Shown piece after piece: positions 18 through 19,403 of a stretch of 19,867 bases of DNA. Under the pieces are notes generated by a model. It did not search any database. It saw only the letters and a list, made by a program, of their open reading frames with translations, and had not been told where the DNA came from. The translations under genes were made by a program, and so were the position numbers. Each line of letters begins with the position of its first letter. The first letter of the stretch is position 1. The stretch covers positions 1 to 19,867 of the forward strand of contig CAVXTM010000014.1 of NCBI GenBank assembly GCA_963764725.1. The letters are read 5' to 3'. Source of the DNA: an uncultured Gammaproteobacteria bacterium (lineage in GTDB: Bacteria; Pseudomonadota; Gammaproteobacteria; JACCXJ01).

Positions 18-140
18 ATGAGAAAACCAACCGTATTTATCTGTAGTTCGACAGAGGGGTTGCCGATCGCCAACGAGTTCGCGGTGCAGTTGAAGCCGTC
101 CGCAAGCATCCGTTCCGCTCAACGATGCGGGCGCTCGTAG
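18..140 (+). pseudogene. Truncated N-terminus of a TIR-like (Cap12/Pycsar-type) domain protein, 40 aa
   Basis: Not in the ORF track. Hand translation gives MRKPTVFICSSTEGLPIANEFAVQLKPSASIRSAQRCGRS*, with a purine-rich RBS (AGGAGAAAGGTG) upstream. KPTVFIxSSxEGLxIA resembles the first strand/helix of bacterial TIR domains; the similarity fades after ~25 aa. Confidence 0.5.
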
Positions 141-183
141 TCACCGCGCGGGCGGGCGCTGTCTAACCATACAATTCCTCCCC

Positions 184-2346
184 ATGCCTCAGCAGTTCGA
201 CGATGTCGGTGATTGTGTCGACGCCGCGCTCCGGCGTGTCGGCAAGCGCATCGTGCTGGCACTCCCGCTCGCACTCGGCAACCCCGTGCCGCTGGCAAAT
301 GAGTTCTACCGGCGCGCGTTCCGCGATCGGTCGATTACGCTTAAAATTTTCACCGGCTTGAGCCTGCGCAAGCCGCAAGCGTCGGGCGAGCTCGAACGCC
401 GCTTCCTCGATCCGTTCGTCGCACGGGTCTTCGGCAACTACCCGGAGCTCGACTACGTCGCGGCCGTGCGCGCGGGCCAGGTGCCGCCCAACATCGAAGT
501 CATCGAGTTCTTCCTCGAGCCGGGCGCCTATTTGCGTAATGCTTACGCGCAACAGCATTACCTCAGCGCAAACTACACGCATATCGTCCGCGAGCTGCTC
601 GCGCACGGCGTGAACGTCGTGGCGCAGATGATCGCAACGCGGGTGAGCGAGGGGCGCATGGAATACAGTCTGAGCTGTAACCCGGACGTGACCGTCGATC
701 TGCTACCGGAGCTCGACGCCGCCCGCCGCGGCGGGCGCGAGATCGTCACCATCGGCGTGGTGAATCGCCAACTGCCCTTCATGTTCGGCGGTGCCGAGAT
801 CGCGGAGAGCGCTCTGGATTTCGTCGTCGAACATTCGCGTTATGACTACGATCTGTACTGCCCCCCGAACCTCGCCATCGGCACGGTGGATTATTTGATC
901 GGGCTCTACGCCAGCGCCCTGGTGAAGGACGCGGGCACGCTCCAGATCGGCATCGGTGAGCTCGGGGATGCGATCGTCTATTGCCTGCAGATGCGGCATC
1001 AGCACAACGCTACCTGGCGAAGCGTCCTCGACGACTGTCGCGTGCGCGAACGCTTCGGTCCGCAGATCGAGCAGATCGGCGACACGGAGCGGTTCGAGCG
1101 CGGCCTCTACGGCTGCACCGAGATGTTCGTCGACGGCTTTCTGGATCTCTATCGATCCGGAATCCTCAAGCGGCGCGTGTATAGCCACGCGCTTGTCCAA
1201 CGGCTGCTCAACGAAGGCAAGATCACGGAACGCCTCGACTCTCGAACCCTCGCACGGCTACTCGAGGCGGGACTGCCGCCGCTCATCAATGAAGCCGCAT
1301 TCGCATCCTTGCAGCAGGTGGGTATCATTGCGGCCGAGTGCGGTTACGAGAGCGGCCGTATCCGCACTCCACAGGGCGAATGGCTGCCGGCGGACCTCTC
1401 GGACGCGGTGACGCGGGAACGGCTTGCGCACGAGTGTCTCGGCACGCATCTGCGCGAAGGCGTGCTGCTCCACGCTGGCTTTTTCCTGGGACCCAAAGGC
1501 TTCTATGCGGCGCTGCGTGACCTACCCGAAGCCGAGCGGCGGCTTTTCGACATGACCGGCGTGGGCTTCATCAACCAGCTCTACGGTAAGGACGCGGCGC
1601 GGCGCATCGCGCAGCGCCAGCATGCGCGCTTCATCAACACTGCGATGATGATCACGCTCACCGGCGCGGCGGTTTCGGACACCTTGGACGATGGGCAAGT
1701 CGTGAGCGGCGTCGGCGGACAGTACAACTTCGTGTCGATGGCACATGCGTTGCCGGGCGCGCACTCGGTGTTGGCGGTGCGCAGTGTGCGCACCAAGGCC
1801 GGCCGCACGACCTCCAACCTCGTGTTCAGTTCCGGCCACCCCACTATCCCGCGACACCTGCGTGATGTGGTGATCACCGAGTACGGCATTGCGCAACTGC
1901 GCGGCAAGACGGACAGCGAGGTCATCGCAGCGCTGCTCAACATCGCCGATGCGCGCTTTCAGGACAAGCTGTTGCGTCAGGCACAGGTTGCCGGCAAACT
2001 CCCGCGCGACTACCGGATCCCTGAAGCTCACCGCAACAACACGCCCGAAGCGCTGGAGAGGGCGCTCGCGGGACATCGCCGCGCGGGATTGTTCTCGGCG
2101 TTTCCGTTTGGCAGCGACTACACCGCCGAGGAATTGGTGCTGGCCCAGGCGTTGAAGCGGCTGCGCGAGCGGATGGATACGGCGGCCGGCAAGGCCGCGG
2201 CCGTGGCGGCGGCGCTCCTGCGGCCGGGGATTTCGGCGCCCATGCGGCCGTATCTGCAGCGCATGCGGCTCGACCGGCCGCAGAACATGCGCGAAAGGCT
2301 GTTGCAGAGACTGGTGGCGAGCGAGCTTCGGGGGCTTCTGGGATGA
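184..2346 (+). CDS. Acetyl-CoA hydrolase/transferase family protein (long ~720 aa form)
   Basis: 720 aa uninterrupted ORF with GC-rich codons. Motifs LQIGIG, SGVGGQYNFV and VVITEYGIAQLRGK are typical of the acetyl-CoA hydrolase/transferase family. Confidence 0.9.
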   Translation: MPQQFDDVGDCVDAALRRVGKRIVLALPLALGNPVPLANEFYRRAFRDRSITLKIFTGLSLRKPQASGELERRFLDPFVARVFGNYPELDYVAAVRAGQVPPNIEVIEFFLEPGAYLRNAYAQQHYLSANYTHIVRELLAHGVNVVAQMIATRVSEGRMEYSLSCNPDVTVDLLPELDAARRGGREIVTIGVVNRQLPFMFGGAEIAESALDFVVEHSRYDYDLYCPPNLAIGTVDYLIGLYASALVKDAGTLQIGIGELGDAIVYCLQMRHQHNATWRSVLDDCRVRERFGPQIEQIGDTERFERGLYGCTEMFVDGFLDLYRSGILKRRVYSHALVQRLLNEGKITERLDSRTLARLLEAGLPPLINEAAFASLQQVGIIAAECGYESGRIRTPQGEWLPADLSDAVTRERLAHECLGTHLREGVLLHAGFFLGPKGFYAALRDLPEAERRLFDMTGVGFINQLYGKDAARRIAQRQHARFINTAMMITLTGAAVSDTLDDGQVVSGVGGQYNFVSMAHALPGAHSVLAVRSVRTKAGRTTSNLVFSSGHPTIPRHLRDVVITEYGIAQLRGKTDSEVIAALLNIADARFQDKLLRQAQVAGKLPRDYRIPEAHRNNTPEALERALAGHRRAGLFSAFPFGSDYTAEELVLAQALKRLRERMDTAAGKAAAVAAALLRPGISAPMRPYLQRMRLDRPQNMRERLLQRLVASELRGLLG

Positions 2347-3643
2347 GAGCTTGTAAAAAATCTGCTGCGCTCGGGATCTCGCGTTCCGGGTAGTGTCCTA
2401 ATTTGGGCTATAGCATAACTTGACTAATAAAGGAGTTGTGTGCCCTTATGTTATCGGAGGTTGAGAGCAAGGTTACCTTGCGGCTACGCCGGTCGCTCGG
2501 TTCTCAGTCTACTGCTGACTATGAGGAGTGGGCACGTATGGCTTGGACAAAGCCGCAGTATAAGCGCGGTGATGTAGACAGAGCAGGCGATTTTCTTGTT
2601 AATGAACCGTCAATAGCGTCTGGTTTTGCCGAACGCGATGACACAGAAGGTTACATTGAACAAGCGGATCGGGCATACACCATAATCAATAATTGGCGTT
2701 CATCGCATAGCTATCCTCTTCAAGCTATTAAGATGACTTTGCTCATAAGAGCGAAGCGGGTGGATAGTCAAGCTATCATGGCCCAGCGCATCAAGCGCCT
2801 CTCCTCCATTGAGGCAAAACTAAGTCGCAACGAGAACATGAAGCTATCGCAAATGCAGGATTTGGGCGGATGCCGCGCTGTCCTTATCACTTCCCGCCGC
2901 GTTAGCGAGTTAGTCGATATTTACGAAAAAGCCGCAGCAAAGAATCCGCGTGATCGATCAGAGTTTGTTAAGAAATACGACTATATCAAAAACCCTAAAA
3001 CTGACGGTTATCGCAGTGTGCATTTCGTTTATAAGTACAGGACAAATGCCGCAGGCCTGGAGATCTATAACGGACTAAGAATCGAAATCCAGTTGCGTTC
3101 GCGGCTTCAACATGCGTGGGCCACCGCTGTCGAGACGGTATCAACTTTCACGGGCCAAGCATTGAAATCAAATATCGGTGATGAAGCGTGGAAGCGGTTC
3201 TTTGCTCTAATGGGAAGTGCTGTTGCACGTAGAGAAGGAACTCCAACAATTCCCAATACGCCTAAGAACATGAGTGAGCTGAAGGAGGAATTAAGAGAAT
3301 GTGCCCGTCAGCTTGACGTTCAAAACCGATTGAGGATTTATGGTGACGCACTCCAAGGAGTACCAGGCAGGGCGGCTTTCCCAGACGCGAAGTATTTTTT
3401 GCTTGAACTTGACTTAACCGGAAAACGGATTCTCGTAAGAGGCTATAGTGAAGAGCTATTAGAAAAGGCAACGACCGATTATCTGGCGGTAGAAAAGTTA
3501 GAAAAATCAGGCACGGTTACTGACGCCGTATTGGTGTCCGTTGACTCGATGGCTAATCTTCGACGGGCTTATCCAAACTATTTCTTGGACACCCGCGTTT
3601 TTGTTGACGCTGTTAATAAGGCAATTGCGTAATTCACAAGCTC
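2347..3643. mobile_element. Putative non-autonomous IR-bounded cassette carrying the CapRel-like gene
   Basis: GAGCTTGT (2347-2354) and ACAAGCTC (3636-3643) are exact 8-bp inverted repeats. TGA flanks both ends directly (2344-2346, which is the upstream stop codon, and 3644-3646). The interior is visibly more AT-rich than both flanking genes, and there is no transposase inside. Confidence 0.55.
2538..3632 (+). CDS. RelA/SpoT-domain small alarmone synthetase, CapRel-like fused toxin-antitoxin
   Basis: Start chosen at ATG 2538 behind GAGGAG (MAWTKPQY...). SYNTH motifs QRIKRLSSI, MQDLGGCR, DYIKNPKTDGYRSVH and EIQLRSRLQHAWATAVE are present. The C-terminal extension ends in VLVSVDSMANLRRAYPNYF (YXXY motif). 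Confidence 0.88.
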   Translation: MAWTKPQYKRGDVDRAGDFLVNEPSIASGFAERDDTEGYIEQADRAYTIINNWRSSHSYPLQAIKMTLLIRAKRVDSQAIMAQRIKRLSSIEAKLSRNENMKLSQMQDLGGCRAVLITSRRVSELVDIYEKAAAKNPRDRSEFVKKYDYIKNPKTDGYRSVHFVYKYRTNAAGLEIYNGLRIEIQLRSRLQHAWATAVETVSTFTGQALKSNIGDEAWKRFFALMGSAVARREGTPTIPNTPKNMSELKEELRECARQLDVQNRLRIYGDALQGVPGRAAFPDAKYFLLELDLTGKRILVRGYSEELLEKATTDYLAVEKLEKSGTVTDAVLVSVDSMANLRRAYPNYFLDTRVFVDAVNKAIA

Positions 3644-3668: not shown

Positions 3669-9240
<5,572 letters not shown>

Positions 9241-9309
9241 GAGAAGTGGCGGAAAGCTAAGGAAGCCGCGAGTATAACGGGCAACGCAGAGCGGAGCACC
9301 GGTGAACGA

Positions 9310-9632
9310 TACGTCGTGCTCGCGCCCAACCGCTGGAAGCTCGGGAAAGCGGTGCGGGTCGTGAACCAGACGCTGAACGGATTAGGGTTGGAACAACATC
9401 CCGAAAAAACGTTTATCGGTAGGATAGAACAAGGCTTTGATTTTTTGGGCTATCACCTTCGTCCAGACAGGCTTGCCGCGGCCAAGACGGTTGAGCGTTT
9501 TCGTTGAACGTGCGAGCCCGCTTTATGAGCGCAAGCCGGGGGAACTTTCGACTCCTCCCGGCTTGGACGGTATGTGCAACGGTGGCTCAGGTAGGCCCGA
9601 GCTGGGTTTCGGAGGGAGTGATAGAAGTGTGA
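9310..9632 (+). pseudogene. 3' remnant of a group II intron-like reverse transcriptase (copy A)
   Basis: Translates VVLAPNRWKLGKAVRVVNQTLNGLGLEQHPEKTFIGRIEQGFDFLGYHL (RT6/RT7 region: HPxKT, GFDFLGY), followed by frameshifted C-terminal sequence. No YxDD motif and no N-terminus. Confidence 0.8.
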
Positions 9633-9730
9633 CCCCATTGCCACAACTATCTCATTGTGGGCGGTGGCTGCCTTGGCACACCTCCATTATTAATCTATCA
9701 AATACCGTTGATTTCTATCCATTGCACTTA

Positions 9731-10030
9731 CTAACAATGGCCACACGGCCAATTGTTATCGATGTTAAATGCTTTGTTGTATATTGCTCTATGCATAGCC
9801 ATTTCTATGGCGTGCGCCATTGTTGGTGATATATAAATTCCCCCTCTGGTCTTATCCAGCTGGATTTCTGTTAATCTCATTTTTATGTTTGAGTCATTAT
9901 TTCGGTCCTGCACCGTTTGGTAACGATGTCTGGTAGAAGTGCTTGATTCATTCGCAGCCACCACTGGTGTTAGGCCTGTGAGGGCGACCATCAGGCTAAA
10001 GGTTGCAATGATATATTGAAGCTGTTTCAT
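9731..10030 (-). CDS. Secreted double-glycine peptide precursor 1 (99 aa)
   Basis: ATG 10030 behind AAGGAGAGAGAA. Signal MKQLQYIIATFSLMVALTGLTPVVAA; pro-region ends LTEIQLDKTRGG; 35-aa core IYISPTMAHAIEMAMHRAIYNKAFNIDNNWPCGHC. Confidence 0.85.
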   Translation of the reverse strand: MKQLQYIIATFSLMVALTGLTPVVAANESSTSTRHRYQTVQDRNNDSNIKMRLTEIQLDKTRGGIYISPTMAHAIEMAMHRAIYNKAFNIDNNWPCGHC

Positions 10031-10266
10031 TTCTCTCTCCTTCAATAATGAACTAACAAACATCGGTACACGATGGTCCCTGCCGGTTCTCTCGCCTCTA
10101 CCACCCAATAAGGAATATTATTTTATATAGAGGCGCTGCCCGGGTCCCAGCTTGCAACGCGAATATAGAGGGTGACCGCAATTTGGTCTGTGAAATATTT
10201 CACGGAAAAAGTGTGAAATATTCACAAAATCTATTGTGGAACACTTCTAATAGAGGGACCATTGAG
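10031..10266 (-). repeat. Conserved upstream module, copy 1 (RBS, 5' leader, promoter)
   Basis: Aligns with 10793-11046, 11863-12095 and 12898-13110. Contains the invariant 32-mer ACGATGGTCCCTGCCGGTTCTCTCGCCTCTAC (10070-10101, + strand). Confidence 0.95.
10162..10226 (-). promoter_or_regulatory. Putative class II CRP/FNR-family-activated promoter for precursor 1
   Basis: TGTGA-AATATT-TCACG (10189-10204) plus TGTGA-N5-TCACA (10212-10226). TATATT -10 on the minus strand (10167-10162). The first site is centred 29.5 bp from the -12 base, i.e. about -41.5. Confidence 0.65.
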
Positions 10267-10276
10267 AAGGAAGCGA

Positions 10277-10474
10277 GTAGGGCGGAAGCCCGCTTTGTCG
10301 GCGTTCCGCCGCATGTGTCCACCTCTGCTCCCAGCCGTGCCATCGATAACGCCATCTCCATCCCGATCGGAAGGGTGGCATCTGTAGGGCCGATGTCCGC
10401 AGGGCGATCCGCCGCACGGGCCGCTTCGGCCGGCAGCCGTGCAGCGGATCGCCAAAAAGCGGCTTCCGCACTAC
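10277..10474. repeat. Cluster of GTAG-type REP-like palindromes (REPIN-like)
   Basis: GTAGGGCGGAAGCCCGCTTTGTCGGCGTTCCGCC at 10277, a degenerate GTAGGGCCGA...GATCCGCC at 10384, and an inverted copy ending at 10474 (minus strand GTAGTGCGGAAGCCGCTTTTTGGCGATCCGC). Confidence 0.65.
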
Positions 10475-10513
10475 CAAACGTAATCTAACGAGTTGTGACC
10501 TTAGGACTAACCA

Positions 10514-10792
10514 TTATTTCCATACAGCTGGCGTCCACTTACCGTCGCCAGGTTTACACAATTGACATCCACCACTACCCAGTATGTTTCGCTGGATAAC
10601 ACCCAGATTTAACATTCCCCCGTGAACCCTGTCCATTTCAATGGATGACAGAATGGATAGTTGAGGCTTTGCTGCGGCCGTTGTTTTAGGGGAATTCATT
10701 GACGTTCGGACTGCATCCGCGGCCACCACTGCTGACAGACCCGTGAGCGCCACTATCAGGCTAAGGGTTGTGATATATTTTCGGCGTTTCAT
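10514..10792 (-). CDS. Secreted double-glycine peptide precursor 2 (92 aa)
   Basis: ATG 10792 behind AAGGAGAGAAAT. Signal MKRRKYITTLSLIVALTGLSAVVAA; pro-region ends LSSIEMDRVHGG; 33-aa core MLNLGVIQRNILGSGGCQLCKPGDGKWTPAVWK. Confidence 0.85.
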   Translation of the reverse strand: MKRRKYITTLSLIVALTGLSAVVAADAVRTSMNSPKTTAAAKPQLSILSSIEMDRVHGGMLNLGVIQRNILGSGGCQLCKPGDGKWTPAVWK

Positions 10793-11046
10793 ATTTCTCT
10801 CCTTCAATATTGCATTAACATACATGGGTGTACGATGGTCCCTGCCGGTTCTCTCGCCTCTACCACCCAATAAGGAATATTATTTGATATAGAGGCGCTT
10901 CCCGGGTCCCATCTTGCAACGCGAATATAGAGGGGTGAGCGGAATTTGGTCTGTGAAATATTTCACAGAAAGAGTGTGAAATATTCACAAAATCTGTTGT
11001 GGAACACTGGGCCAATGGAACACTTTCAATGAGAGGGTCCATTGAG
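10793..11046 (-). repeat. Conserved upstream module, copy 2
   Basis: Invariant 32-mer at 10832-10863. Similarity to copy 3 continues ~90 bp further (to ~11135 vs ~12178). Confidence 0.95.
10924..10989 (-). promoter_or_regulatory. Putative class II CRP/FNR-family-activated promoter for precursor 2
   Basis: Perfect 20-bp palindrome TCTGTGAAATATTTCACAGA (core 10952-10967), second site TGTGA-N5-TCACA (10975-10989), and TATATT -10 at 10929-10924. The first site centres at about -42.5. Confidence 0.65.
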
Positions 11047-11189
11047 CGTGTTTAACTAAATCCAACCTTGCCCTGACTCATTGCGCAAAATGAGGGGGTT
11101 TCCTGAGGGTGGGCATTAGCCTCCTAATCTGTGGACCTCCTGTCGCTCCGACGCTGCGCGTTCCCCTGGAGCCCGCGGGAGGAGACCCC

Positions 11190-11432
11190 ACCAGACGCTG
11201 CACGGATTAGGGTTGGAAAAACAGCCCGAGAAAACGTTTGTCGGAAGGATAGAAAAAGGCTTTGAGTTTTTGGGCTATCACCTTCGTCCAGGCAGGCTTG
11301 CCGTGGCCAAAGACGGTTGAGCGTTTCATTACGTACGAGCGGGCTTTATGAGCGAAAGCCGGGGGAGACACTTTCGAGTCTCCCCGGCTTGGTAGGTACG
11401 TACAACGGTGGTTCAGGTGGGCCCGAGCTGGT
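11190..11432 (+). pseudogene. 3' remnant of a group II intron-like reverse transcriptase (copy B)
   Basis: Nucleotide-level homolog of 9365-9605, reading QTLHGLGLEKQPEKTFVGRIEKGFEFLGYHLRPG... Confidence 0.8.
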
Positions 11433-11583
11433 TATGGTTGCGTGCGCTTGGAGAACGGGGCCAGCCTGGTTTTCGCCTCGCTGAGCGTGAGGTCAAGCTT
11501 CGCCAAACCGTCGCCGAGTATTGACGTGGCCAATTTCTTCAACTCGATCCCTCACAGGTTATGATGATGTGTCCGGTGACCCC

Positions 11584-11862
11584 TCATAGCCCCGCACATG
11601 CTATGTGTCTGCAGGTTACTCCGCGGCCATCGGAACCGTAGGGCGGGGGTGAGGGTTGTTTGTCCTCATTTATCATACCACCATATAATTTGTCCATTTG
11701 CTCGGGCGACAGTCTATGCCCTGGGCTACTCTCGAACTGCCGCGTGTCTGGTTGGATTCGCTCACCACGTGATGTTCTTTCTGCATCCGCCACTACCACG
11801 GGCGACAGACCAATGAGCCCCATTATCATGGTCAAGGCTGTGATATATTGTCGCTGTTTCAT
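11584..11862 (-). CDS. Secreted double-glycine peptide precursor 3 (92 aa)
   Basis: ATG 11862 behind AAGGAGAGAGAA. Signal MKQRQYITALTMIMGLIGLSPVVVA; pro-region ends LSPEQMDKLYGG; 30-aa core MINEDKQPSPPPYGSDGRGVTCRHIACAGL. Confidence 0.85.
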   Translation of the reverse strand: MKQRQYITALTMIMGLIGLSPVVVADAERTSRGERIQPDTRQFESSPGHRLSPEQMDKLYGGMINEDKQPSPPPYGSDGRGVTCRHIACAGL

Positions 11863-12095
11863 TTCTCTCTCCTTCAATAATGAATTAACAAACATGGGTA
11901 CACGATGGTCCCTGCCGGTTCTCTCGCCTCTACTACCCAGTAAGGAATATTTGATATAGGCGCTGGGCCCCGGGTCCCATCTTGCAACGCGAATATAGAG
12001 GGGTGAAAGGATTTGATCTGTGAAATATTTCACGGGAAAAGTGTGAAATATTCACAAGAGCTGTTGTGGAACTCTCTAATAGAGGCACCATTGAG
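11863..12095 (-). repeat. Conserved upstream module, copy 3
   Basis: Invariant 32-mer at 11902-11933; same block order as the other copies. Confidence 0.95.
11992..12056 (-). promoter_or_regulatory. Putative class II CRP/FNR-family-activated promoter for precursor 3
   Basis: TGTGA-AATATT-TCACG (12019-12034), TGTGA-N5-TCACA (12042-12056), and TATATT -10 at 11997-11992. The first site centres at about -41.5. Confidence 0.65.
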
Positions 12096-12203
12096 CGTGT
12101 TTAACTAGGTCCAACGTAGCCCTGACTCATTACGCAATAAGGGATTCCTGAGGTGGGCGCTAGTCTTCTAATCCCTGGATTGGCGGGGGACTTTGTGTCG
12201 TTT

Positions 12204-12391
12204 GTCCAGGCAGGCTTGCCGTGGCCCAAAAGACGGTTGAGCGTTCGTTGAACGTGCGAGCCGGCTTTATGAGCGGAAGCCGGGGGAGGCACTTTCGAGT
12301 CTCCCCGGCTTGGTAGGTACGTACAACGGTGGTTCAGGTGGGCCCGAGCTGGGTTTTCGGAGGGCGTGGTTGAGGTGGGACGCCCCATGCC
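12204..12391 (+). pseudogene. 3' remnant of a group II intron-like reverse transcriptase (copy C, shortest)
   Basis: Nucleotide homolog of 9461-9632 and of ~11286-11432 (GTCCAGGCAGGCTTGCC...GGCCCGAGCTGG). Confidence 0.75.
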
Positions 12392-12621
12392 TCATGACTC
12401 ACGATTCACCTATGTGGCCCATGCCGGTCGGCTCCTGTCGTTAGATCTCTCTGAGTTTCTCAGCTCCAGTTTCGGTGCCGCGCTCGAGATTGTGATCTTT
12501 TAGACCCTCGTGAAGGCCAACCCCGCCGAAGCTGAGGCGGTCAAGTCCCTCATCGGGTGACCTCAGCCCACTCCTAATGCGTGCAGCACGCGAGCGCCTT
12601 GACTATGTTGGTGGGGCTCAG

Positions 12622-12897
12622 TTACATGTTACATGTCATTGTACATGAACCGTTCGAGCAGGTTATACGGATGGCACAAAAAAGCGCTTTTGCGGCCCAT
12701 CCCGGAAGTCCTAGCCCTCCGCCGGTGACTGCGTCCATTTGGTGTGCCGTGAGTTCGATTTTCTGGGGTGGGACGGGTTCGGATTGAGAATGCGCGTGTC
12801 GCACTTCTTCTCCTGCAACATCCGCCGCCACCACTGGCGACAGACCACTGAGGACCACTATCAGGCTAAAGGCTGTGATAAATTGTCGCTGTTTCAT
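12622..12897 (-). CDS. Secreted double-glycine peptide precursor 4 (91 aa)
   Basis: ATG 12897 behind AAGGAGAGAGCA. Signal MKQRQFITAFSLIVVLSGLSPVVAA; pro-region ends LTAHQMDAVTGG; 31-aa core GLGLPGWAAKALFCAIRITCSNGSCTMTCNM (4 Cys). Confidence 0.88.
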   Translation of the reverse strand: MKQRQFITAFSLIVVLSGLSPVVAADVAGEEVRHAHSQSEPVPPQKIELTAHQMDAVTGGGLGLPGWAAKALFCAIRITCSNGSCTMTCNM

Positions 12898-13110
12898 TGC
12901 TCTCTCCTTCGATACGAATTAAAAAAACAGAGGTACACGATGGTCCCTGCCGGTTCTCTCGCCTCTACCACCCAATAAGGAATATTTGATAGACGCGCTG
13001 GGCCCCGGGTCCCATCTTGCAACGCGAATATAGAGGAGTGAGCGGAATTTGGTCTGTGAAATATTTCACAGAATTTGGTGTGGAACACTTTAAATAGAGG
13101 GACCATTGAG
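12898..13110 (-). repeat. Conserved upstream module, copy 4 (only one operator palindrome)
   Basis: Invariant 32-mer at 12937-12968; the second TGTGA site is absent. Confidence 0.95.
13027..13072 (-). promoter_or_regulatory. Putative class II CRP/FNR-family-activated promoter for precursor 4
   Basis: Perfect palindrome TCTGTGAAATATTTCACAGA (core 13055-13070) and TATATT -10 at 13032-13027. The site centres at about -42.5. Confidence 0.65.
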
Positions 13111-13370
13111 CGGGCAGAGCAGTGCCAGGAGTCGCCGCCAGGCTCGGCGCTCCCCGCTACATAAAAGCACGAATGAGAGGTTCCCGCGGATCCCACCGAG
13201 GTATCAGTTGAGATTCTGCATTGGATTTCTTATCCTTTTACTTCGCACAGGGAAAGCTAATGTGTAACCTCAACTATTGCACGCTTGCTGAACGCGTTAC
13301 TGCGCGAGGCGCGGTGCTGACGGCGGGTTGGCGCCCGCCTCGTCCAAGGAGATGCCGCCCGACTTCATTC

Positions 13371-13988
13371 ATGCGAACTTGGATCCCCATTGCTCTGCTC
13401 CTCAGTGCCGCGGCCGGGGCGCCCGTGCGGGCCGTCGAACGGGGGCCGGTTAAATCGCTCCTGGAAATGCGGCGAGATCGAGTGGTGGTTCAGAAGTGGG
13501 ACTTAAGTTGTGGCGCCGCGGCGCTTGCCACTCTACTGAATTACCAGCACGGCGACCCAGTTGCGGAGAGGGAGATCGCGCGGGCGCTGATGCAACGCCG
13601 GGAATACCTGGCCGATCCGTTGCGGGTGCGGGTGCAGCAAGGGTTCTCTCTGCTCGACCTCAAGCGCTACGTCGATAAGCGGGGTTATGAGGGCATCGGC
13701 TACGGCCGGCTTACGCTTCAGGACCTGATCGAACAGGCCCCCATTCTGGTGCCGCTCAGCCTGCACGGTTACAATCACTTTGTCGTGTTCCGCGGCAGGC
13801 GCGGGGATCGGGTACTGATTGCGGATCCCGCCTGGGGGAACCGTACCCTGCGGGTAGAGAGATTCGAGGAGGCCTGGATTGACTCTCCAGAGATCGGTAA
13901 GGTAGGTTTCGTGGTGGTGGGGCGTGAGGGCAGCACGCCGCCTAATCGCCTCGCCCCTCGCGCTAGTGATTTCGTGATGTTGCGGTAA
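13371..13988 (+). CDS. Stand-alone periplasmic C39 family cysteine peptidase (FapD-like)
   Basis: Start at ATG 13371 gives a signal peptide MRTWIPIALLLSAAAGAPVRA. Catalytic motifs QKWDLSCGAAALATLL (Q, C), YNHFVV (H) and IADPAWG (D) are present. No ABC transporter domains. Confidence 0.92.
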   Translation: MRTWIPIALLLSAAAGAPVRAVERGPVKSLLEMRRDRVVVQKWDLSCGAAALATLLNYQHGDPVAEREIARALMQRREYLADPLRVRVQQGFSLLDLKRYVDKRGYEGIGYGRLTLQDLIEQAPILVPLSLHGYNHFVVFRGRRGDRVLIADPAWGNRTLRVERFEEAWIDSPEIGKVGFVVVGREGSTPPNRLAPRASDFVMLR

Positions 13989-14011
13989 GCCATCAATCAG
14001 AAAGGACGCAA

Positions 14012-15289
14012 ATGACACCACCCAGGGGTTCGCGCCAGCTGATGCAAGGCGCGGCCTTAGGCGCATCTTTCGCTTTGGTGGGACTGGTTGTGGCCGGGCC
14101 CCAGACAAAGCAGGCCGGCTCTCATCCTCAGCCGACGATGGAGGAACTGATGCGAAGGCTCGAGGAGCGCGACGCCCTCATTGTTGATCTGCAGCGACGC
14201 GTTGGAGAGCTCGAGCGGCAAATCGCCACGCCGCCCGTTAACCCGCAACCGGTGGCTGCCAAGCCCGTGCCCTCAGTGCCGCCGGTAGCCTCATCGGCTG
14301 AGCAGAAGCCACCGAACGCGGAGCGTCGGAGCGACAGGATGTCGCCGGCCAGTACAGGGACGTACGCATCGACACAAGCCGAAGAGGCTCCAGCGGCTGC
14401 AAGCAGCGCGGCGCCGGCAGCGCCCGGCCAATTCGAGGTCGATGAGGAGGCCGCCGAGCGCGCGCTGGAGCAGACACTGGTCGTGACGGGCGCACTCCTT
14501 CTGCCATTTGGACAGGCCGACATCCAGCCCAGCTTCACCTATATCCGAAGCGAGGAAGAAGCACCTACCCTCTTAGCGCAAGGTGTGGCTGCATCGCAAG
14601 ATGTTCGCCGCAATACCTTCATCGCCGATCTTTTTCTGCGCTTCGGTCTACCCTTCGACTCACAACTGGAGGTCGGCATTCCTTATCGATATGTAGAGAA
14701 GCAAGTGGTCACAGAAGTAGATGTCGGCGCGCGGGCCGAGACGGAGTCTCATGGCTCCGGATTCGGCGATCTCGGTTTCGGCCTGGCCAAGGGGTTGCTG
14801 GAAGAGCGCAACTGGTGGCCGGATCTAATCGGTAGGGTGACATGGGATACTGACTCCGGTGAAACCTCCGATGACGGCTTTTCGCTTGGCGGCGGCTTCC
14901 ACGAGCTCCAGGGTTCGTTAACCATGACCAAGCGCCAGGACCCGCTGGTGTTCATCGGCAGCGCCTCCTATGGGACTACATTCGAAAAGGACGATATCAA
15001 TCCGGGCGACCAGCTTGGTTTCTCGGTCGGGGCGGTGCTGGCCGCCAGTCCTGAGACCTCGCTGCGCGTTGTTCTCAATCAGACATTCGTCAGCGAGCTG
15101 GAGGACGGGGATAGGACCATCAGCGGATCCGATCAGGTGTTCGGAACGCTGAACTTTGGGGCCTCCTCGATCATCGGCCGCGGGAAATTTCTCGACCTGA
15201 CGGCTGGGATAGGTTTGACCGATGAGGCCCCCGATTACTCAGCAGGGATTTCTCTCACGATTAGCTTCGACGTCCCCACTCGCTTCTAG
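14012..15289 (+). CDS. Outer-membrane beta-barrel transporter with N-terminal coiled coil (FapF-like)
   Basis: Hydrophobic N-terminus, heptad segment MEELMRRLEERDALIVDLQRRVGELERQIA, Pro/Ala-rich linker, helix EEAAERALEQTL, alternating amphipathic strands and a C-terminal Phe (SFDVPTRF). Starts 23 bp after the C39 gene. Confidence 0.82.
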   Translation: MTPPRGSRQLMQGAALGASFALVGLVVAGPQTKQAGSHPQPTMEELMRRLEERDALIVDLQRRVGELERQIATPPVNPQPVAAKPVPSVPPVASSAEQKPPNAERRSDRMSPASTGTYASTQAEEAPAAASSAAPAAPGQFEVDEEAAERALEQTLVVTGALLLPFGQADIQPSFTYIRSEEEAPTLLAQGVAASQDVRRNTFIADLFLRFGLPFDSQLEVGIPYRYVEKQVVTEVDVGARAETESHGSGFGDLGFGLAKGLLEERNWWPDLIGRVTWDTDSGETSDDGFSLGGGFHELQGSLTMTKRQDPLVFIGSASYGTTFEKDDINPGDQLGFSVGAVLAASPETSLRVVLNQTFVSELEDGDRTISGSDQVFGTLNFGASSIIGRGKFLDLTAGIGLTDEAPDYSAGISLTISFDVPTRF

Positions 15290-15297
15290 CATTCCTA

Positions 15298-16723
15298 CAT
15301 AGGTCGGATCTTTAAACCTATTGAATTATAAGTGGAACTTACGATGTTTCACTCGATCCCAATGAGCAATCGACCAAGATTAGCTCAAGAAAGGAGAGAC
15401 CGAGTGAAACGTACCAACGCTACCACGGCGGTAGGACGATTCAAGAGAGTATTTTCGGAGCGGGAGTTGAACCGATTGGGCAAAGCGGTGAGGTATTGCC
15501 AGCGTGAACGGGTAGTGACGCCGTTTCGGCTGGTGATGGCGATGCTCTCGACGCTATCGAGTAGAAAGGTCGAGACATTGGCAGATCTCCAACGCGGTTT
15601 CAATGCGTTGTTTGGGGAGAGCTTGGCCTACAAGCCCTTTCACAATCAGCTTTCCAAGCGTGGGTTTGGGGAGTTCATGCGGGCGTGCGTAGAGCGCTTG
15701 GTGGAGAAGCTCGTTCTCAAGGTCTTGAAGATCAAAGAAGGTCACGCCTTTTCGGAATTTCGGCGCATTGTGATCCAGGACGGAAGTTCCTTTGCGGTCA
15801 AGGACAGCTTGCGTGATGTTTTCCCCGGTCGCTTTAAGCGAGTGAGCCCCGCGGCGGTGGAATTGCACGTCAGCATGGATCTCTTGAGCGAGGCGCTCGA
15901 GCATATCACCCTAACCCCCGACACCTTCGGTGAGCGGGCCGAGCTTCCCGACCCTGGGAGTTTATCCGGTTGCCTATTGCTCGCCGACCGCGGTTACTTC
16001 AGCTTGCCCTATGTGGGGGAGATGATAAAGGCGGGGGCGAGCTTGGTGCTGCGGACCAAGACAAACCTCAATCCGTGGGTGGTCAACGCCTATGGGAAAG
16101 CGGGTAAGCGCCTACGCCGGTTGTGTGGGAAGCCGTTGCGGGAAGTGGTCGAACGATTTCCCAAAAAGACCCCGGTAGATCTCGATGTATGCTGGCGGAA
16201 TGCACAGCACCAACTCTCCTGTCGCCTGGTGGTGAGCTTCAATCCGAAGACCCGTGAATTCCGCTACCTCCTCACCAACCTCTCCCGCACCCGCTATGCC
16301 GCCGAGCAGGTCGGTTTGGCCTACAAGCTCCGCTGGCAGATCGAGCTCCTGTTTAAAGAGTGGAAATCCTACGCGAACCTGCATGCCTTCGACACCGGCA
16401 AATCCCGAGATCGCCGAAGGTCTCATCTGGGCCGCCATCGCCGCCGCGACGGTGAAACGTTATCTCGCGCATCTCACCCAGCAGCTTGCCCACGTGGACA
16501 TCTCTACCCGCAAGGTCGCCATGTGTGCGCACCATGTGATGAGCGGCATTGTAAAGGCTCTCCTCGATGGTCGCCTCTCTCGAATTCGTAAGGCAATCAA
16601 CAACGCCGTCGCCTTTCTTGCAACCAATGCCCGCCGGGCACACCCTCAACGCGACAGGCGAAGCGGACGCCTCGAACTGAATTTGGAACCAGTTTTCAAC
16701 GCGGCTTAAGTACCTAACCTATG
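15298..16723 (+). mobile_element. IS4-family insertion sequence (~1.43 kb)
   Basis: Imperfect terminal IRs CATAGGTCGGATCTTTAA / CATAGGTTAGGTACTTAA (13/18 identical). 10-bp direct repeat AGCATTCCTA at 15288-15297 and 16724-16733. Confidence 0.92.
15404..16709 (+). CDS. IS4-family DDE transposase, one +1 frameshift near 16400
   Basis: GTG start behind AAGGAG. IQDGSS, LADRGY and the IS4 YREK signature YKLRWQIELLFKEWK are present. The C-terminus (NPEIAEGLIWAA...) continues in the frame of ORF 16254-16709. Confidence 0.9.
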
Positions 16724-16932: not shown

Positions 16933-17433
16933 TCACTGGGCAATCCATCGCTGGACAGGGAGCGCTGGCATTGTAAAAATATCCGAGACTGGCCCCGTTC
17001 GCCCGTTCGCAAGGAAGTCGGTCAGCCTTGATGCCAGGCCCGCCGTGTCTTGGGTTTCGCAGGACCAGATGATCGCGACCGTCCACCCATCGGCTTCGAG
17101 TTCGGCTACTTTCCGTGCATCTCGCTCGACATTTGCGTCGAACTTGCGAGACCAGAAATCCTTGCGGCTCTTCGGCGTGCTGGCAGCCTTACAGCCCGAA
17201 TGCCGATGCCAAAAGCAGCCGTGAACGAAGATAGCTTTTCGTCGGATTGGAAACACTATGTCGGGCGTTCCCGGGAGATCTCGACGATGAAGTCCATATC
17301 GATAGCCAAGGCGATGAAGTAGCCGACGGACGGTCATCTCGGGCTTCGAGTCCTTCGGCCCGATTCGCGACATGAGTGCGCTTCTGTCCGCAGGTGAGAG
17401 AAAATCGGTTTCAATCGGATGTGGGCGGAGCAT
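16933..17433 (-). CDS. vsr: Very short patch repair endonuclease (start uncertain)
   Basis: DFLSPADRSALMSRIGPKDSKPE, DLPGTPDIVF, IFVHGCFWHRH and FWSRKFDANVERD are hallmark Vsr motifs. Confidence 0.92.
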   Translation of the reverse strand: MLRPHPIETDFLSPADRSALMSRIGPKDSKPEMTVRRLLHRLGYRYGLHRRDLPGTPDIVFPIRRKAIFVHGCFWHRHSGCKAASTPKSRKDFWSRKFDANVERDARKVAELEADGWTVAIIWSCETQDTAGLASRLTDFLANGRTGPVSDIFTMPALPVQRWIAQ

Positions 17434-19403
17434 AATCTTCGATCGCTTGAATGATTTCGTGGAGTTTGTCGACGAGATCACGATTACGCATATAGTCTTG
17501 GTACGTTTGGCGAGCCCCCCGTAGAAGCTCTTCATAGAAGACGATGCGCGCATTCTGTACTTTCAGCATGTCGTGGGAACGTGTCTTAGCGGCGTCGCTA
17601 GTCCAATCCGAGGGTTTCTTCCCAAGGAGGACGATGAACTGAATCGGCTCGTGGGCCGATCCTTGTGCTGCCAGAATTCGCTGCATGCCACTCAGATATT
17701 TTTCGATTTGGCCGATTAGCGCTGTCGTGCTGACCGTCCTTTCCGGTCGCTTCAATTCGATAATGACATGTTGGCCGGCCGTTTTCCGATAGGCGATATC
17801 GAGCCTTCCTCTTTTTCATCTTCCGGAAGCTCGGCGTCGATCTCGTTGAACAACGCCGTGACCGGACGCTCCATGATTTCGGTTCCATCTGCGCGCTCCC
17901 ATGCAGGATCGAGCAACCAGAGATGATTGAACAGATACTGCTGGATGGCTTTTTCGAGATCGTTGGAATCGACTTTTTCTTCGAGAGTGCGGATTACCTT
18001 GAATCCGTTGCTGAACAATCTGTCCGTAAAGATTAGCTTCGAGGTTATCGAGCTCCTTGAAAATTTCCAAGGCCGTTTGGATGTTCTCGTCGGTGATATT
18101 CTCGAGCGCGTCCAGGTTCTCTTTGGCCCGATAGAATTCGAATGCTAGCACCGCGTGCTTGATGAGTTGTTTCTGCTCGTTCAGATCGTCAAGCCGGATC
18201 CGGTTGATCTTACCGAGCCATTTTTTGGCCTTCGCCCGGGTGGGCGGGTTGAGTGTCGATCCATCTCTTCACGGCAGGGATCTCTAACGCTTTTTGGGCT
18301 CCTTCCTCGGTACGAAGTCTCTGCCATTCATTTTGGATGTGTTTCAGTTCGCGACCGATGAATCTCTTCAACCCTTGGTAGCGATCATCGTCTTCGACGA
18401 TTTTGTGACGGCTGCTCGTTGCAGCATCATCGTCTTTGGTGGTTCCCGGACCATCGTAGGTATCCAACCCATCGATACGCAGTTCTCCGATGAGATAGCT
18501 CGCATAGACGCCACGCTCCGAAAATTCCGATAGAATCTCCTCTTGTGCCATCTTGCCGCGCACGAAAATCGCGATGCGGTTCAAGTTGTCCCCGTCTTCA
18601 TCCCGTAGGTGACGTACCTCCTTCACCGTGCCTAGCCAGCCGTCGATTTGTGGATCTTTGTCCATGATCGCGCTCGTGCGGTCGAAATGCTGCGCTACCG
18701 AACATAAGCCGATGACTTCGGTCTGGTCGCCATACGTCCAGAGGTACTGAACCTTGTCGTAGTAATCGCGGTCGGCAGAGTAACTTCCTCTTCATCAACG
18801 ATGATGCGGAAACCTTCCGCAGCACCGATGACCGAGAAACGGCGTGCCAACCGTCGTTTGAGTGCCTGTGTCGTGCGGATCGTCTGCCTCTTCCGCAGTT
18901 CGGTCAGTACGATGCGGGTCCCACGCTCGAAGTCGATGCTTGCGACAGGGAGGGGGTCGGGATTGTAAGTCCCTTCCCCACCCGATTGCTCGATCCGCTG
19001 CCGGATATGCTCCAAACGCATTCTGAAGGCGCTTTTCTGCCCACCTTTCACGGTTTCGATATCGACGCATCCGGCGAACGAAAAGAGATACCTCCCGATC
19101 CCCTTGCCTGCCATCGGATGACGGCATTTTCCCGTAACCCCGGGCTGTCCATCGCGACGACGATATCCCACGGTCAGGAAACATCGGTTGACCTCTTCTG
19201 GTGTCATCCCTACCCCTGTATCGCGGATTCCAATCCGGTCATTTGTCCGGTCCCATTCGCATGGACCTCATCGGCGTCGGCATCCCATTCGTTCGCGACG
19301 ATCTCGGACAGAACTGCCGGGACGTTGCTGTAAGGTTGATGCCAGGATGCTCCAGGACGTTGAGGCTGATCGTCAGCGCAAAAGGAGGAGGTGGTTCCGT
19401 CAT
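17411..19403 (-). CDS. GHKL (HATPase_c) ATPase fused to a PD-(D/E)xK nuclease, HgiDII-like restriction endonuclease; many frameshifts
   Basis: Pieces across frames: MTEPPPPFALTISLNVLEH..., NVPAVLSEIVAN-WDADA (N-box), DTGVGMT (G1), GKGIG (G2), GTRI (G3), and near the C-terminus HLWLLDPAWER and GRLDIAYRKTAGQHVIIELKRP. The ATG overlaps the methylase stop (ATGA). Confidence 0.75.

Follow-up and report, generated by a model that had tools for sequence, protein, structure and literature searches.

Four minus-strand open reading frames (ORFs) at 9731-12897 of the 19,867-nucleotide stretch of DNA analysed here (hereafter, the window) each encode a small tripartite protein, which consists of a signal, a pro-region and a core. 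Nearby, on the opposite strand, lie the genes for a stand-alone C39 peptidase and a FapF-fold channel. We consider it fairly probable that the four proteins are pre-pro-peptides that are exported by Sec, acquire disulfides in the periplasm, are cleaved by the C39 peptidase and exit through the FapF-type channel as secreted bioactive products. The features are as follows.

9226-9636, plus strand: 3′ remnant of a group-II-intron-type reverse transcriptase (RT) gene, plus about 130 nt
9731-10030, minus strand: pep1 pre-pro-peptide gene, 99 aa; signal at residues 1-26, GG at 63-64
9838-9734, minus strand: pep1 core, with C-x2-C at its end
10031-10265, minus strand: conserved upstream module of pep1, with two palindromes, a candidate −10 element, a 5′UTR of about 140 nt and a ribosome-binding site
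10514-10792, minus strand: pep2 pre-pro-peptide gene, 92 aa; signal at residues 1-25, GG at 58-59
10615-10517, minus strand: pep2 core, containing C-x2-C
10793-11030, minus strand: conserved upstream module of pep2, with a perfect TGTGA-N6-TCACA at 10952-10967
11584-11862, minus strand: pep3 pre-pro-peptide gene, 92 aa; signal at residues 1-25, GG at 61-62
11676-11587, minus strand: pep3 core, containing C-x4-C; member of a 16-member conserved core family
11863-12095, minus strand: conserved upstream module of pep3
12622-12897, minus strand: pep4 pre-pro-peptide gene, 91 aa; signal at residues 1-25, GG at 59-60
12717-12625, minus strand: pep4 core, with 4 Cys
12898-13100, minus strand: conserved upstream module of pep4, with the first palindrome deleted and a perfect TGTGA-N6-TCACA at 13055-13070
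13371-13988, plus strand: C39 (double-glycine) peptidase, standing alone and headed by a signal peptide, divergent from the peptide genes
14012-15289, plus strand: FapF-fold outer-membrane channel, with a signal peptide, a putative coiled-coil helix (43-72), a putatively disordered linker, a helix (145-158) and a beta-barrel (168-420)

Parsing of the ORFs yielded signals of 26, 25, 25 and 25 aa in pep1 to pep4, respectively, pro-regions of 38, 34, 37 and 35 aa (GG included), and cores of 35, 33, 30 and 31 aa with 2, 2, 2 and 4 Cys. These values reproduce the constrained lengths (34-38 aa for the pro-regions and 30-35 aa for the cores) and the Cys counts given in the first-pass annotation, and the signal–pro–mature layout that it proposed is present in all four genes. 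The signal peptides were called by eye and with a hydropathy rule. An AAGGAG ribosome-binding site is located 6-8 nt 5′ of the ATG in each gene. Among five distinct cassettes, the nucleotide identity falls from 0.90 in the 5′UTR and 0.78 in the signal to 0.53 in the core. The description of the signals as near-identical holds. For the cores, the shuffled control gives 0.53 as well, which means that they resemble one another no more than shuffled sequences do. The earlier statement that neither the pro-regions nor the cores share recognisable sequence thus holds for the cores, but not for the pro-regions, which have a leader motif in common in their last 12 residues.

These 12 residues are LTEIQLDKTRGG, LSSIEMDRVHGG, LSPEQMDKLYGG and LTAHQMDAVTGG, in which the L, the D and the GG are invariant. 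The GG motif had been correctly noted as conserved, but the canonical double-glycine leader around it, L-x4-[ML]-D-x3-G-G, had been missed; it ends the pro-region in all four genes. The matching C39 peptidase, predicted to be periplasmic, and the FapF-type channel encoded next to the array had likewise gone unremarked. A signal-like segment (25-26 aa) and a spacer (22-26 aa) stand before the leader, which is consequently not the N-terminus of the precursor.

Could assembly errors have distorted these cores? The first-pass annotation had raised this concern with respect to indels. Both pep1 and pep3 occur in frame again at a second locus, on contig C4 (97% and 98% identity, respectively), and the pep3 core was found in 16 relatives. 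In addition, two 151-nt contigs from run X1, which may be the source sample of the stretch, match pep2 without differences over 10431-10581 and 10608-10758. For the pep4 core we found no independent copy, and no relative among the metagenome relatives collected. The evidence of expression consists of two RNA-library contigs identical over 10281-10558, for which DNA carry-over is possible.

Each peptide gene appears to form its own transcription unit. A search of the DNA 5′ of the four genes detected no promoter matching the sigma-70 consensus, and the pep4 module lies in the intergenic region shared with the divergent C39 gene. Since a conserved upstream module with CRP-type palindromes is common to all four genes, a single activator probably induces them jointly.

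Next, we compared the window peptides with their relatives, about 100 of which have kept the signal together with a site that reads GG or AG. Among 78 metagenome relatives, 70 keep the leader L-x4-[MLI]-D-x3-[GA]-G (GG in 36 and AG in 34), and 8 are truncated or motif-less. The hydrophobic residues at −4, −7 and −12 that define a double-glycine leader are present in the same proportion of relatives (70/78) and in all four window peptides. The core length ranges more loosely than in the window, from 7 to 82 aa (median 35). The 70 cores contain no Cys in 21 cases, one in 3, two in 40, four in 5 and six in 1; the number is therefore even in 46 of the 49 Cys-containing cores. Once the set is dereplicated, the same holds for 19 of the 20 core clusters that contain Cys. 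Among the 15 two-Cys cluster representatives, 8 carry C-x4-C, and Cys is absent before the core in 64/70 relatives.

Clustering placed all of the signal-plus-leader parts in one cluster and divided 65 cores into 32 unrelated clusters, so that core families are counted as at least 32. This result fits the analogy to a toxin or antimicrobial library that had been drawn earlier. Moreover, in 24 pairs of relatives the signal and leader are at least 75% identical and the cores are unrelated, and in 54 pairs the cores are related and the signal and leader are less than 45% identical. Between the two histories previously suggested, duplication with diversification and core swapping, these pairs and the shuffled control favour core swapping: by their sequences, the cores are interchangeable modules, rather than diverged duplicates. 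Diversifying selection is not borne out for one core family, which is well conserved across very different signals; this conservation points to purifying selection on that core. A core family among the relatives is composed of GRSGQP..VNT repeats.

The C39 peptidase comprises 205 aa, with the start picked from the C4 copy. It matches Pfam PF03412 (1.1e-13, 51.6 bits; cut-off 22), and its nearest NCBIfam models are FilB (3.1e-30) and FapD (5.1e-26), although it falls below both equivalog cut-offs (105.5 bits versus 475 for FilB, NF050078; 91.3 versus 330 for FapD, NF058616). It aligns with the double-glycine protease LahT150 (6mpz) such that both catalytic residues, Cys47 and His136, find their counterparts; the two are invariant in 29 sequences. 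The model of the C39–peptide complex has an ipSAE of 0.71, as compared to 0.01 for the best control. Of 157 solved complexes, 116 attain this mark, as do 2 of 215 mismatched pairs. The runs share at least 51% of the contacts, and the partner pLDDT is at least 47, with the peptide's own fold uncertain (pLDDT < 50). In the modelled interface, residues 44-48 and 134-137 of the peptidase, around Cys47 and His136, face peptide residues 47-63, which correspond to leader positions −15 to +1 and include both glycines. The pass of this model may reflect its likeness to solved C39–leader complexes.

The channel scores above the cut-off for PF13557, and FapF PDB chains match it at 9e-6. Its AF2 model (pLDDT 73.9) contains helices at 43-72 and 145-158, separated by a low-confidence stretch (73-141), and 13 strand elements across residues 168-420. 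In Foldseek, FapF chains occupy all ten top places (E 3e-18 to 8e-16, TM 0.78-0.81), and the score against the NCBIfam FapF equivalog (28.7 bits) is below the cut-off of 700. The window peptidase and channel are relatives, not equivalogs, of FapD/FilB and FapF.

These genes are also linked elsewhere. The peptide, C39 and channel genes occur together in all four metagenome loci of at least 2.6 kb, two of which (L015 and L016) are near-identical. In other genomes of the class, a FapF-like gene is located within the fetched 17 kb in 14 of 16 C39 loci. In two of these loci, G191 and G260, the C39 gene is directly preceded by an array of small ORFs (4 and 3, respectively) that carry a signal and an L..MD..TAG leader.

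How would the peptides leave the Gram-negative cell? We propose a two-step exit. First, the N-terminal signal, as its sequence suggests, would direct passage through Sec and then be removed. Second, the core Cys would pair in the periplasm to form one or two disulfide loops, as the even Cys counts suggest. Third, the periplasmic C39 peptidase would read the 12-residue double-glycine leader and cut after the GG (AG in relatives), a step suggested by homology, gene linkage and the complex model. Finally, the FapF-type trimeric barrel would carry the mature 30-35 aa peptide over the outer membrane, in line with its fold and with the Fap and Nap systems. We regard this export route as likely.

In our reading, the products are probably secreted and bioactive, akin to bacteriocins/microcins or to the Nap (autolysis) peptides. 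An antimicrobial or lytic role in particular is possible but somewhat doubtful. No candidate immunity gene was found between the cassettes or in L015, where small unannotated ORFs could escape notice, and no modification, receptor, sensor kinase or regulator gene is present in the locus or L015; the bacteriocin reading is weakened by these absences. In addition, the net charge of the cores among the relatives ranges from −8 to +7, and most cores are therefore unlike cationic membrane-active peptides.

It is unlikely that the peptides are secreted signals of the pheromone or quorum type, rather than toxins. Peptide pheromones also use GG leaders, the lack of a visible immunity gene suits a signal, and the strong conservation of one core family across divergent signals is as for a ligand. 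However, the locus and L015 have no sensor kinase or receptor gene, and competition is the better fit to the several unrelated cores per genome and to the turnover seen when the two loci of a single genome are compared.

We consider it quite improbable that the peptides, as in Fap, build or prime a fibre or matrix outside the cell (as small functional-amyloid or pilus-like subunits), instead of being diffusible bioactives. The peptidase and channel form a Fap-type pair, the GG-leader substrates in related loci are FapB/FapE-like proteins (with the FapB-like matches only in the loci of other genomes), the small proteins of G191 and G260 are rich in Gly/Ala/Ser/Tyr or Asn/Gln, and the GRSGQP..VNT family is repetitive. 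In contrast, the window cores, at 30-35 aa, are short, show no relationship to one another and contain no amyloid or Asn/Gln repeats, the FapA/B/C/E models match no window protein, including the peptides, and 32 unrelated core families on one leader are unlike co-assembling subunits.

Partial copies of the RT remnant lie between the cassettes at 11190-11431 and 12201-12385, and remnants flank three of the four cassettes. A diversity-generating retroelement (DGR) was rejected, as the RT ORF is a 93-aa 3′ piece, no template/variable repeat pair was found, and the repeats that were found exclude the cores. That function or mobility resides in the conserved 5′ module alone, with the tails as meaningless read-through, or that the remnants signify DGR-like core mutagenesis, is very improbable: the 5′UTR is indeed the best-conserved part, RT remnants lie beside most cassettes and 8/78 relatives are defective, but the even Cys numbers, the GG/AG site kept in 70/78 relatives, the core conserved in 16 relatives, the lack of mutual similarity among the cores and the absence of the RT fragment from the eight metagenome loci and two G009 loci searched all stand against it, as do the grounds for rejecting the retroelement.

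If the four genes do encode exported, bioactive pre-pro-peptides, they place a FapD-type enzyme beside Sec-signal substrates with a textbook double-glycine leader. This provides a precise candidate cleavage site, and no natural case would show more clearly which sequence is recognised by peptidases of the FapD type. The Fap-type machinery would then be a general two-step, ABC-independent exporter of small peptides, beyond amyloid subunits, and the cassettes would be a bacterial counterpart of conotoxin-style libraries. As a source of peptides, the family offers at least 32 unrelated disulfide-looped scaffolds that are predicted to be naturally exported, and the compact signal-plus-leader tag might be reusable for small-peptide secretion from Gram-negative hosts.

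Class II microcins and other bacteriocins with double-glycine leaders resemble the window peptides in that leader, which is hydrophobic at −12, −7 and −4, in the small unmodified core, often with a disulfide, and in the several peptide genes per locus. Their export depends on C39-ABC transporters (PCAT), an HlyD-type adaptor and TolC; in such systems the leader is the N-terminus, and the cleavage is cytoplasmic and coupled to ABC export. Here, in contrast, the leader follows a Sec-type signal, the C39 enzyme stands alone and is predicted to be periplasmic, and no ORF within the window encodes an ABC transporter, an HlyD-type adaptor or an immunity protein. Prochlorosins (with Nif11/NHLP leaders) and conotoxin superfamilies likewise combine a conserved leader with a hypervariable core, and the likeness lies in a single N-terminal module, for targeting or recognition, that is attached to many short Cys-rich cores of unrelated sequence. 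Prochlorosins, however, require a modifying enzyme and an ABC-C39 exporter, while the window and L015 have no RiPP modification enzyme, and conotoxins are eukaryotic.

The closest described systems are the Pseudomonas Fap functional-amyloid system and the Neisseria nap island. According to Rouse et al. 2017 (PMC5557850), secretion requires the protease activity of FapD, which is located in the periplasm, and the Fap proteins lack a canonical C39 recognition sequence, while cleavage in C39-ABC systems is cytoplasmic and coupled to ABC export; the FapD target is stated there, and in PMC6173795, as unknown. The window locus shares with Fap, as presented in these accounts, a predicted periplasmic C39 peptidase, substrates predicted to be exported by Sec and a channel of the FapF fold (Foldseek). 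The Fap channel is a 12-stranded barrel with a coiled coil at its N-terminus, followed by a linker and a plug helix, to which the two helices and the low-confidence stretch of the window model may correspond. It differs in its lack of FapA/B/C/E genes and amyloid repeats, and in its substrates, which are 30-35 aa Cys-loop peptides with the canonical leader.

In the account of the nap island (PMC11798529, PLoS Biol 2025), the GG peptides NapA/B/C are encoded with a periplasmic C39 peptidase, NapP, and a FapF homologue, NapF. Its model has periplasmic cleavage followed by exit through the FapF homologue, with the inner-membrane crossing ascribed to the holin-like NapH, and the synthetic Nap peptides inhibited none of the four test strains (PMC11798529). 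The window locus contains the same three parts: GG peptides, a signal-bearing stand-alone C39 peptidase and a FapF homologue. Both units, as far as the published description of nap goes, are small and patchily distributed and have several small GG-site peptides. The Nap pre-peptides, as printed in S1, have long hydrophobic N-termini, without an annotated Sec signal or the canonical L-x4-M-D-x3-GG, and the island as described has NapR, NapI and NapH genes, none of which is present in the window locus. Unlike those of nap, the window peptides have Cys pairs, one conserved signal, leader and promoter module, and exchangeable cassettes. If our proposal is true, it would fill a gap in the nap scheme, namely how the peptides get to the periplasm. 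We tentatively suggest that the window peptides could represent an undescribed class of Gram-negative secreted peptides, in which one promoter–5′UTR–Sec signal–leader module carries dozens of unrelated disulfide-loop cores through an ABC-free Sec, C39 and FapF-type export route.

The window is the complete contig C14 (19,867 nt), one of the 19 contigs of a 4.2-Mb assembly, and proteins at least 90% identical to the acetyl-CoA hydrolase of the window are labelled as Chromatiales, Gammaproteobacteria or Pseudomonadota MAGs. Four peptide genes lie within it:

10030–9731, minus strand: pep1, core of 35 aa with 2 Cys
10792–10514, minus strand: pep2, core of 33 aa with 2 Cys
11862–11584, minus strand: pep3, core of 30 aa with 2 Cys
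12897–12622, minus strand: pep4, core of 31 aa with 4 Cys

The N-termini of the four products (MKQ/R.., a hydrophobic stretch, and ..VVAA followed by D) are read, by eye and by hydropathy, as predicted Sec signals of 25–26 aa. A spacer of 22–26 aa separates each signal from a 12-residue block, which is LTEIQLDKTRGG, LSSIEMDRVHGG, LSPEQMDKLYGG and LTAHQMDAVTGG in pep1 to pep4, respectively. The pro-region thus ends in a canonical double-glycine leader: positions −12, −7 and −4 are hydrophobic and positions −2 and −1 are Gly-Gly, as in the consensus quoted in PMC5557850. The core lengths and Cys counts of the first-pass annotation are right, because our parsing gave the same signal, core and Cys values. 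Neither Pfam nor NCBIfam matched a family to the four peptides, and an ESM Atlas search with pep3 gave a top score of 0.79, under the usable level. A formate-tetrahydrofolate ligase identity proposed by NCBIfam for one peptide was dismissed (E 0.0047; 15 bits vs a cut-off of 652).

Conservation is confined to particular parts of the cassette, the unit of a peptide gene and its upstream module. The conserved block begins about 230 nt upstream of each ATG, spans the 5′UTR and the signal, and then fades; past the signal, only a small conserved island remains at ..QMD..GG, and the core lacks any conservation.

Table. Pairwise nucleotide identity of five distinct cassettes (means; shuffled control in parentheses).
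Promoter part: 0.79 (0.59)
5′UTR: 0.90 (0.58)
Signal: 0.78 (0.57)
Spacer: 0.59 (0.56)
Leader: 0.63 (0.56)
Core: 0.53 (0.53)
150 nt downstream: 0.58 (0.58)

The first-pass annotation had found no recognisable likeness among the pro-spacers or the cores; this is borne out for the cores, whose identity equals the control, and fails at the end of the pro-region, where the canonical leader had been overlooked. The whole upstream module, including the 5′UTR, is also conserved in metagenome loci. For the 5′UTR, RNAalifold proposed a 9-bp stem (CGCCTCTAT/GTAGAGGCG) and a closing stem, and the covariation gave this fold no support (term +0.41; double change in 1 of 34 pairs).

A profile built from five peptides retrieved 78 proteins at E≤0.01 among 3,308 candidates, nearly all of them unnamed metagenome ORFs. 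Among 1.84 billion cluster representatives, the profile search found 108 at E≤0.001 and 72 at E≤1e-10, with a few long repetitive, spurious-looking proteins at the weak end. The leader motif of the window genes extends through the family: L-x4-[MLI]-D-x3-[GA]-G is present in 70 of the 78 relatives (GG in 36, AG in 34), and the other eight are truncated or diverge ahead of the motif. The same is true of the even Cys numbers. The relatives carry 0 (21), 1 (3), 2 (40), 4 (5) or 6 (1) Cys per core, so that 46 of the 49 Cys-containing cores have an even number, and the modal count is even in 19 of 20 Cys-containing core clusters. The commonest spacing is C-x4-C, in 8 of 15 two-Cys cluster representatives. 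Net charges of the cores range from −8 to +7 across the family.

How are the leaders and the cores related? When the 65 cores with 20 aa or more were compared by BLASTP, they fell into 32 unrelated clusters, while their 65 signal-plus-leader parts formed one. Unrelated cores occur in 24 pairs that share at least 75% of the signal and leader, and related cores in 54 pairs in which these parts are less than 45% identical; leader and core are, to judge from these comparisons, uncoupled. The first-pass annotation had proposed either duplication with diversification or core swapping. The cores retain no residual similarity, which argues against duplication followed by point-mutational diversification; of the two routes, core swapping is the better supported. 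The pep3 core type (…YGSDGRGVTCRHIACAGL) is retained in 16 relatives, some with very different signals, which points to purifying selection on it. The much longer protein P0269 (363 aa) starts with the signal of the peptide family but lacks a double-glycine leader in the sequence that follows, so other cargo, too, may carry the signal module. Scanning one genome per species with the peptide profile gave 76 pattern matches, none of them a relative, and the family is present in only 2 of 41 related genomes, the window's own and the unpublished G009; it is therefore rare and patchy.

The assembly itself contains a second locus, on contig C4, whose flanks are 97.8–98.5% identical to the window. 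It contains copies of pep1 (97%) and pep3 (98%), and a fifth peptide with an HAG site. There, a fragment of the pep4 leader is joined to the 5′UTR of the pep1 copy, a fusion that is by its sequence a recombination scar. Window positions 9049–10067 and 13274–15310 match C4 at 98–99%, and a 2.2-kb stretch (window 107–2340 vs C18:710251–712486) is 99% identical to the end of contig C18. C14 and C4 may represent separate loci of a single genome or come from two strains in one bin. C14 may be a variant from another strain or a segment duplicated recently, rather than unique sequence.

Between the peptide cassettes, and antisense to them, lie 5′-truncated copies of the 3′ end of a group-II-intron-type RT gene with about 130 nt of downstream sequence (TIGR04416, 2.3e-6):

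9226–9636, plus strand: RT remnant
11190–11431, plus strand: RT remnant
12201–12385, plus strand: RT remnant

Further copies are located on C4 at about 1956–2510 and 3950–4193 of the fetched locus L001. Rfam gave nothing on the whole window at E≤0.1 and only a chance lncRNA match on 9200–9760 at E≤10, and the fold of the RT-linked repeat is not significant (z = −1.3). The ORF of P0012, a metagenome relative, reads through a similar element. The repeat might be a decayed retroelement inserting behind peptide genes, or a substrate for cassette recombination.

The trust placed in single cores, such as that of pep4, depends on the assembly. A UvrA-like gene of about 5.6 kb (3669–9240, minus strand) is split into four overlapping ORFs (3669–5654, 5470–6939, 6813–7925 and 7888–9240), which implies three frameshifts, either of a pseudogene or from assembly indels, and these bear on that trust. 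No public sequencing run contains more than 14% of the sampled words, and the reads are therefore unable to polish the whole region. Contigs of the sediment run X1 are identical to 10431–10581, 10608–10758 and 11977–12213, and X1 may be the source sample. In the RNA library X7, two contigs are identical over 10281–10558, which comprises the last 45 nt of pep2 and the DNA that follows; the match hints only weakly at transcription, as DNA carry-over is possible. In run X2 (organism A), many contigs cover the GC-rich stretch 10245–10470, between pep2 and the pep1 promoter, to a depth of thousands; the window's genome has one copy of it, and a plasmid search gave no match.

The genes pep1, pep2 and pep3 are each preceded by a pair of palindromes, whose centres we count as about 22 nt apart; pep4 has only the second of the pair. 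The second palindrome, (T/C)GTGA-AATATT-TCACA, resembles the consensus site of CRP-type regulators, TGTGA-N6-TCACA. On the alignment, we count 30 nt from the centre of this palindrome to a TAnnTT element downstream. If TAnnTT is the −10 element, the palindrome would be centred near −41.5, as class II activator sites are. A sigma-70 scan found no site upstream of any peptide gene (4 in the region vs 3.4 expected), which fits activator dependence. The genome contains five perfect TGTGA-N6-TCACA sites, two of them in the window, and five CRP/FNR-family genes above the Pfam cut-off. The 14-mer GTGAAATATTTCAC occurs six times: four in the window, one on C4, and one upstream of a secreted-protein gene on C15. 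The same CRP-type palindrome (C15:303612) precedes, by about 200 nt, a gene for a secreted protein of 273 aa, and a double palindrome in the same arrangement (C5:111340–111390) precedes a short, frameshifted-looking signal-peptide ORF. These C15 and C5 genes may belong to the same regulon as the peptide genes.

Two genes divergent from pep4 form a candidate export pair:

13371–13988, plus strand: C39 peptidase, 205 aa, start taken from the C4 copy
14012–15289, plus strand: channel, starting 23 nt past the end of the peptidase gene

The peptidase begins, on the C4 copy, with the signal-like N-terminus MRTWIPIALL... It matches PF03412 above the Pfam cut-off (1.1e-13), and the best NCBIfam models, both far below their cut-offs, are the putative pilus peptidase FilB (3.1e-30) and FapD (5.1e-26); no paper on FilB/FilC in Acinetobacter was found in the literature searched. 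In an alignment with LahT150 (6mpz, 1.3e-5), a double-glycine protease domain, its catalytic Cys and His are matched, and both residues are invariant in 29 homologues. The stand-alone peptidase family comprises 5,881 proteins at E≤1e-5; of 300 genomes sampled from the class, among them the unpublished G009, G154 and G308, 41 have a member at E≤1e-10.

We predicted the complex of peptidase residues 22–205 with residues 27–92 of a pep3-type peptide, using our own alignments. The ipSAE was 0.71, vs 0.01 for the best of three controls. Of 157 solved complexes, 116 reached this mark, as did 2 of 215 mismatched pairs; the contacts agreed by at least 51% between runs, and the partner pLDDT was at least 47. 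In the confidently predicted interface, peptidase residues 44–48, 89–96, 109–114 and 134–137, which surround Cys47 and His136, contact peptide residues 47–51 and 53–63, a stretch corresponding to leader positions −15 to +1 with both glycines. Structures of C39 domain–leader complexes have already been solved, and the pass may therefore reflect that likeness. The prediction supports recognition of the leader by the peptidase, and is by itself no proof of cleavage.

The channel matches PF13557 above the Pfam cut-off, and its likeness to FapF is weak by sequence (NCBIfam 5.6e-7; PDB 5o65/5o67 at 9e-6). An AlphaFold2 model from only eight sequences (mean pLDDT 73.9, pTM 0.61) has a helix (43–72), a low-confidence linker, a second helix (145–158) and a barrel (168–420), and the best ten Foldseek matches in the PDB are all FapF (E 3e-18 to 8e-16, TM 0.78–0.81).

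The trio recurs elsewhere. A metagenome scan gave eight loci, and in all four of at least 2.6 kb (L013–L016, of which L015 and L016 are near-identical) a peptide gene is divergent from the C39 and channel genes. At L015 the only peptide gene is followed by housekeeping genes, and no gene for modification, immunity, a receptor or a regulator is present. Of the 16 peptidase loci fetched, 14 have a FapF-like gene within 17 kb. Small ORFs that encode a signal and L..(A/Q/D)(L/M)D..(I/V)TAG stand directly upstream of the peptidase gene in G191 (four) and G260 (three); Fap-like operons, with FapB matches, encode FapE-like proteins with a signal and then ..EL..MRGG. A heuristic scan for signal-plus-leader ORFs beside C39 genes, from which many matches inside signal peptides were discarded by eye, gave candidates convincing on our own reading in 6 of the 16 loci (L050, L052, L053, L055, L058 and L064), and FapB-like proteins are found in two further loci. 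The substrates of the peptidase/channel pair therefore seem, in general, to be built with a Sec signal and then a GG leader. At L054 (G310:C10), two stand-alone C39 genes accompany repeated secreted proteins of 122–139 aa, whose leader-like block ends in ..GITGK or ..GISAK, not GG, and whose C-terminus is ..GGF; no FapF-like gene was found within the 12.7 kb fetched.

Among the other genes of the window are a candidate defence gene, fragments of a restriction enzyme and an IS4 transposase:

2436–3632, plus strand: RelA/SpoT-domain protein, 398 aa, PADLOC candidate defence family PDC-S33 (5.9e-115)
15332–16591: IS4-family transposase
16933–19207, minus strand: Vsr mismatch endonuclease, then several short ORFs matching consecutive parts of REase_II (PADLOC)

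The RelA/SpoT-domain gene lies in a low-GC island (47% vs about 63% around it). Copies of the IS4 stretch on C9, C10 and C12 are 92–98% identical over about 1–1.4 kb, and the Vsr gene with the fragmented REase_II is probably a broken restriction-modification system.

We propose the following model, in which each cassette would be transcribed in an activator-dependent manner. From sequence, fold, linkage and the complex prediction, we infer that the peptides would then be exported by Sec with removal of the signal, form their disulfides in the periplasm, be cleaved by the C39 peptidase after GG, and exit via the FapF-type barrel. A bacteriocin-like or Nap-like lytic role would fit the GG leaders and the small disulfide loops, the presence of several unrelated cores at one locus and the turnover from one locus to another, and also the patchy distribution and the gene surroundings. 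Against it stand the lack of an immunity gene and the wide range of core charges, and PMC11798529 reports that none of four test strains was inhibited by synthetic Nap peptides, which counts against a lytic role here. The rival readings are that the peptides are fibre subunits, signalling peptides or meaningless read-through.

Arrays of peptides with a Sec signal and then a GG leader, exported by a FapD/FapF-type pair, are not described in the literature searched, outside which most subscription-journal papers lie. In the Fap system of Pseudomonas, according to PMC5557850 and PMC6173795, FapD is located in the periplasm and secretion depends on its protease activity; what it targets “remains unclear”, and the Fap proteins lack canonical C39 sequences, whereas the window peptides carry a canonical GG leader. 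The nap island of Neisseria, as described in PMC11798529, encodes GG peptides beside NapP and NapF, like the trio of the window; unlike the peptides here, the Nap peptides have no annotated Sec signal, and a holin is invoked for their crossing of the inner membrane.
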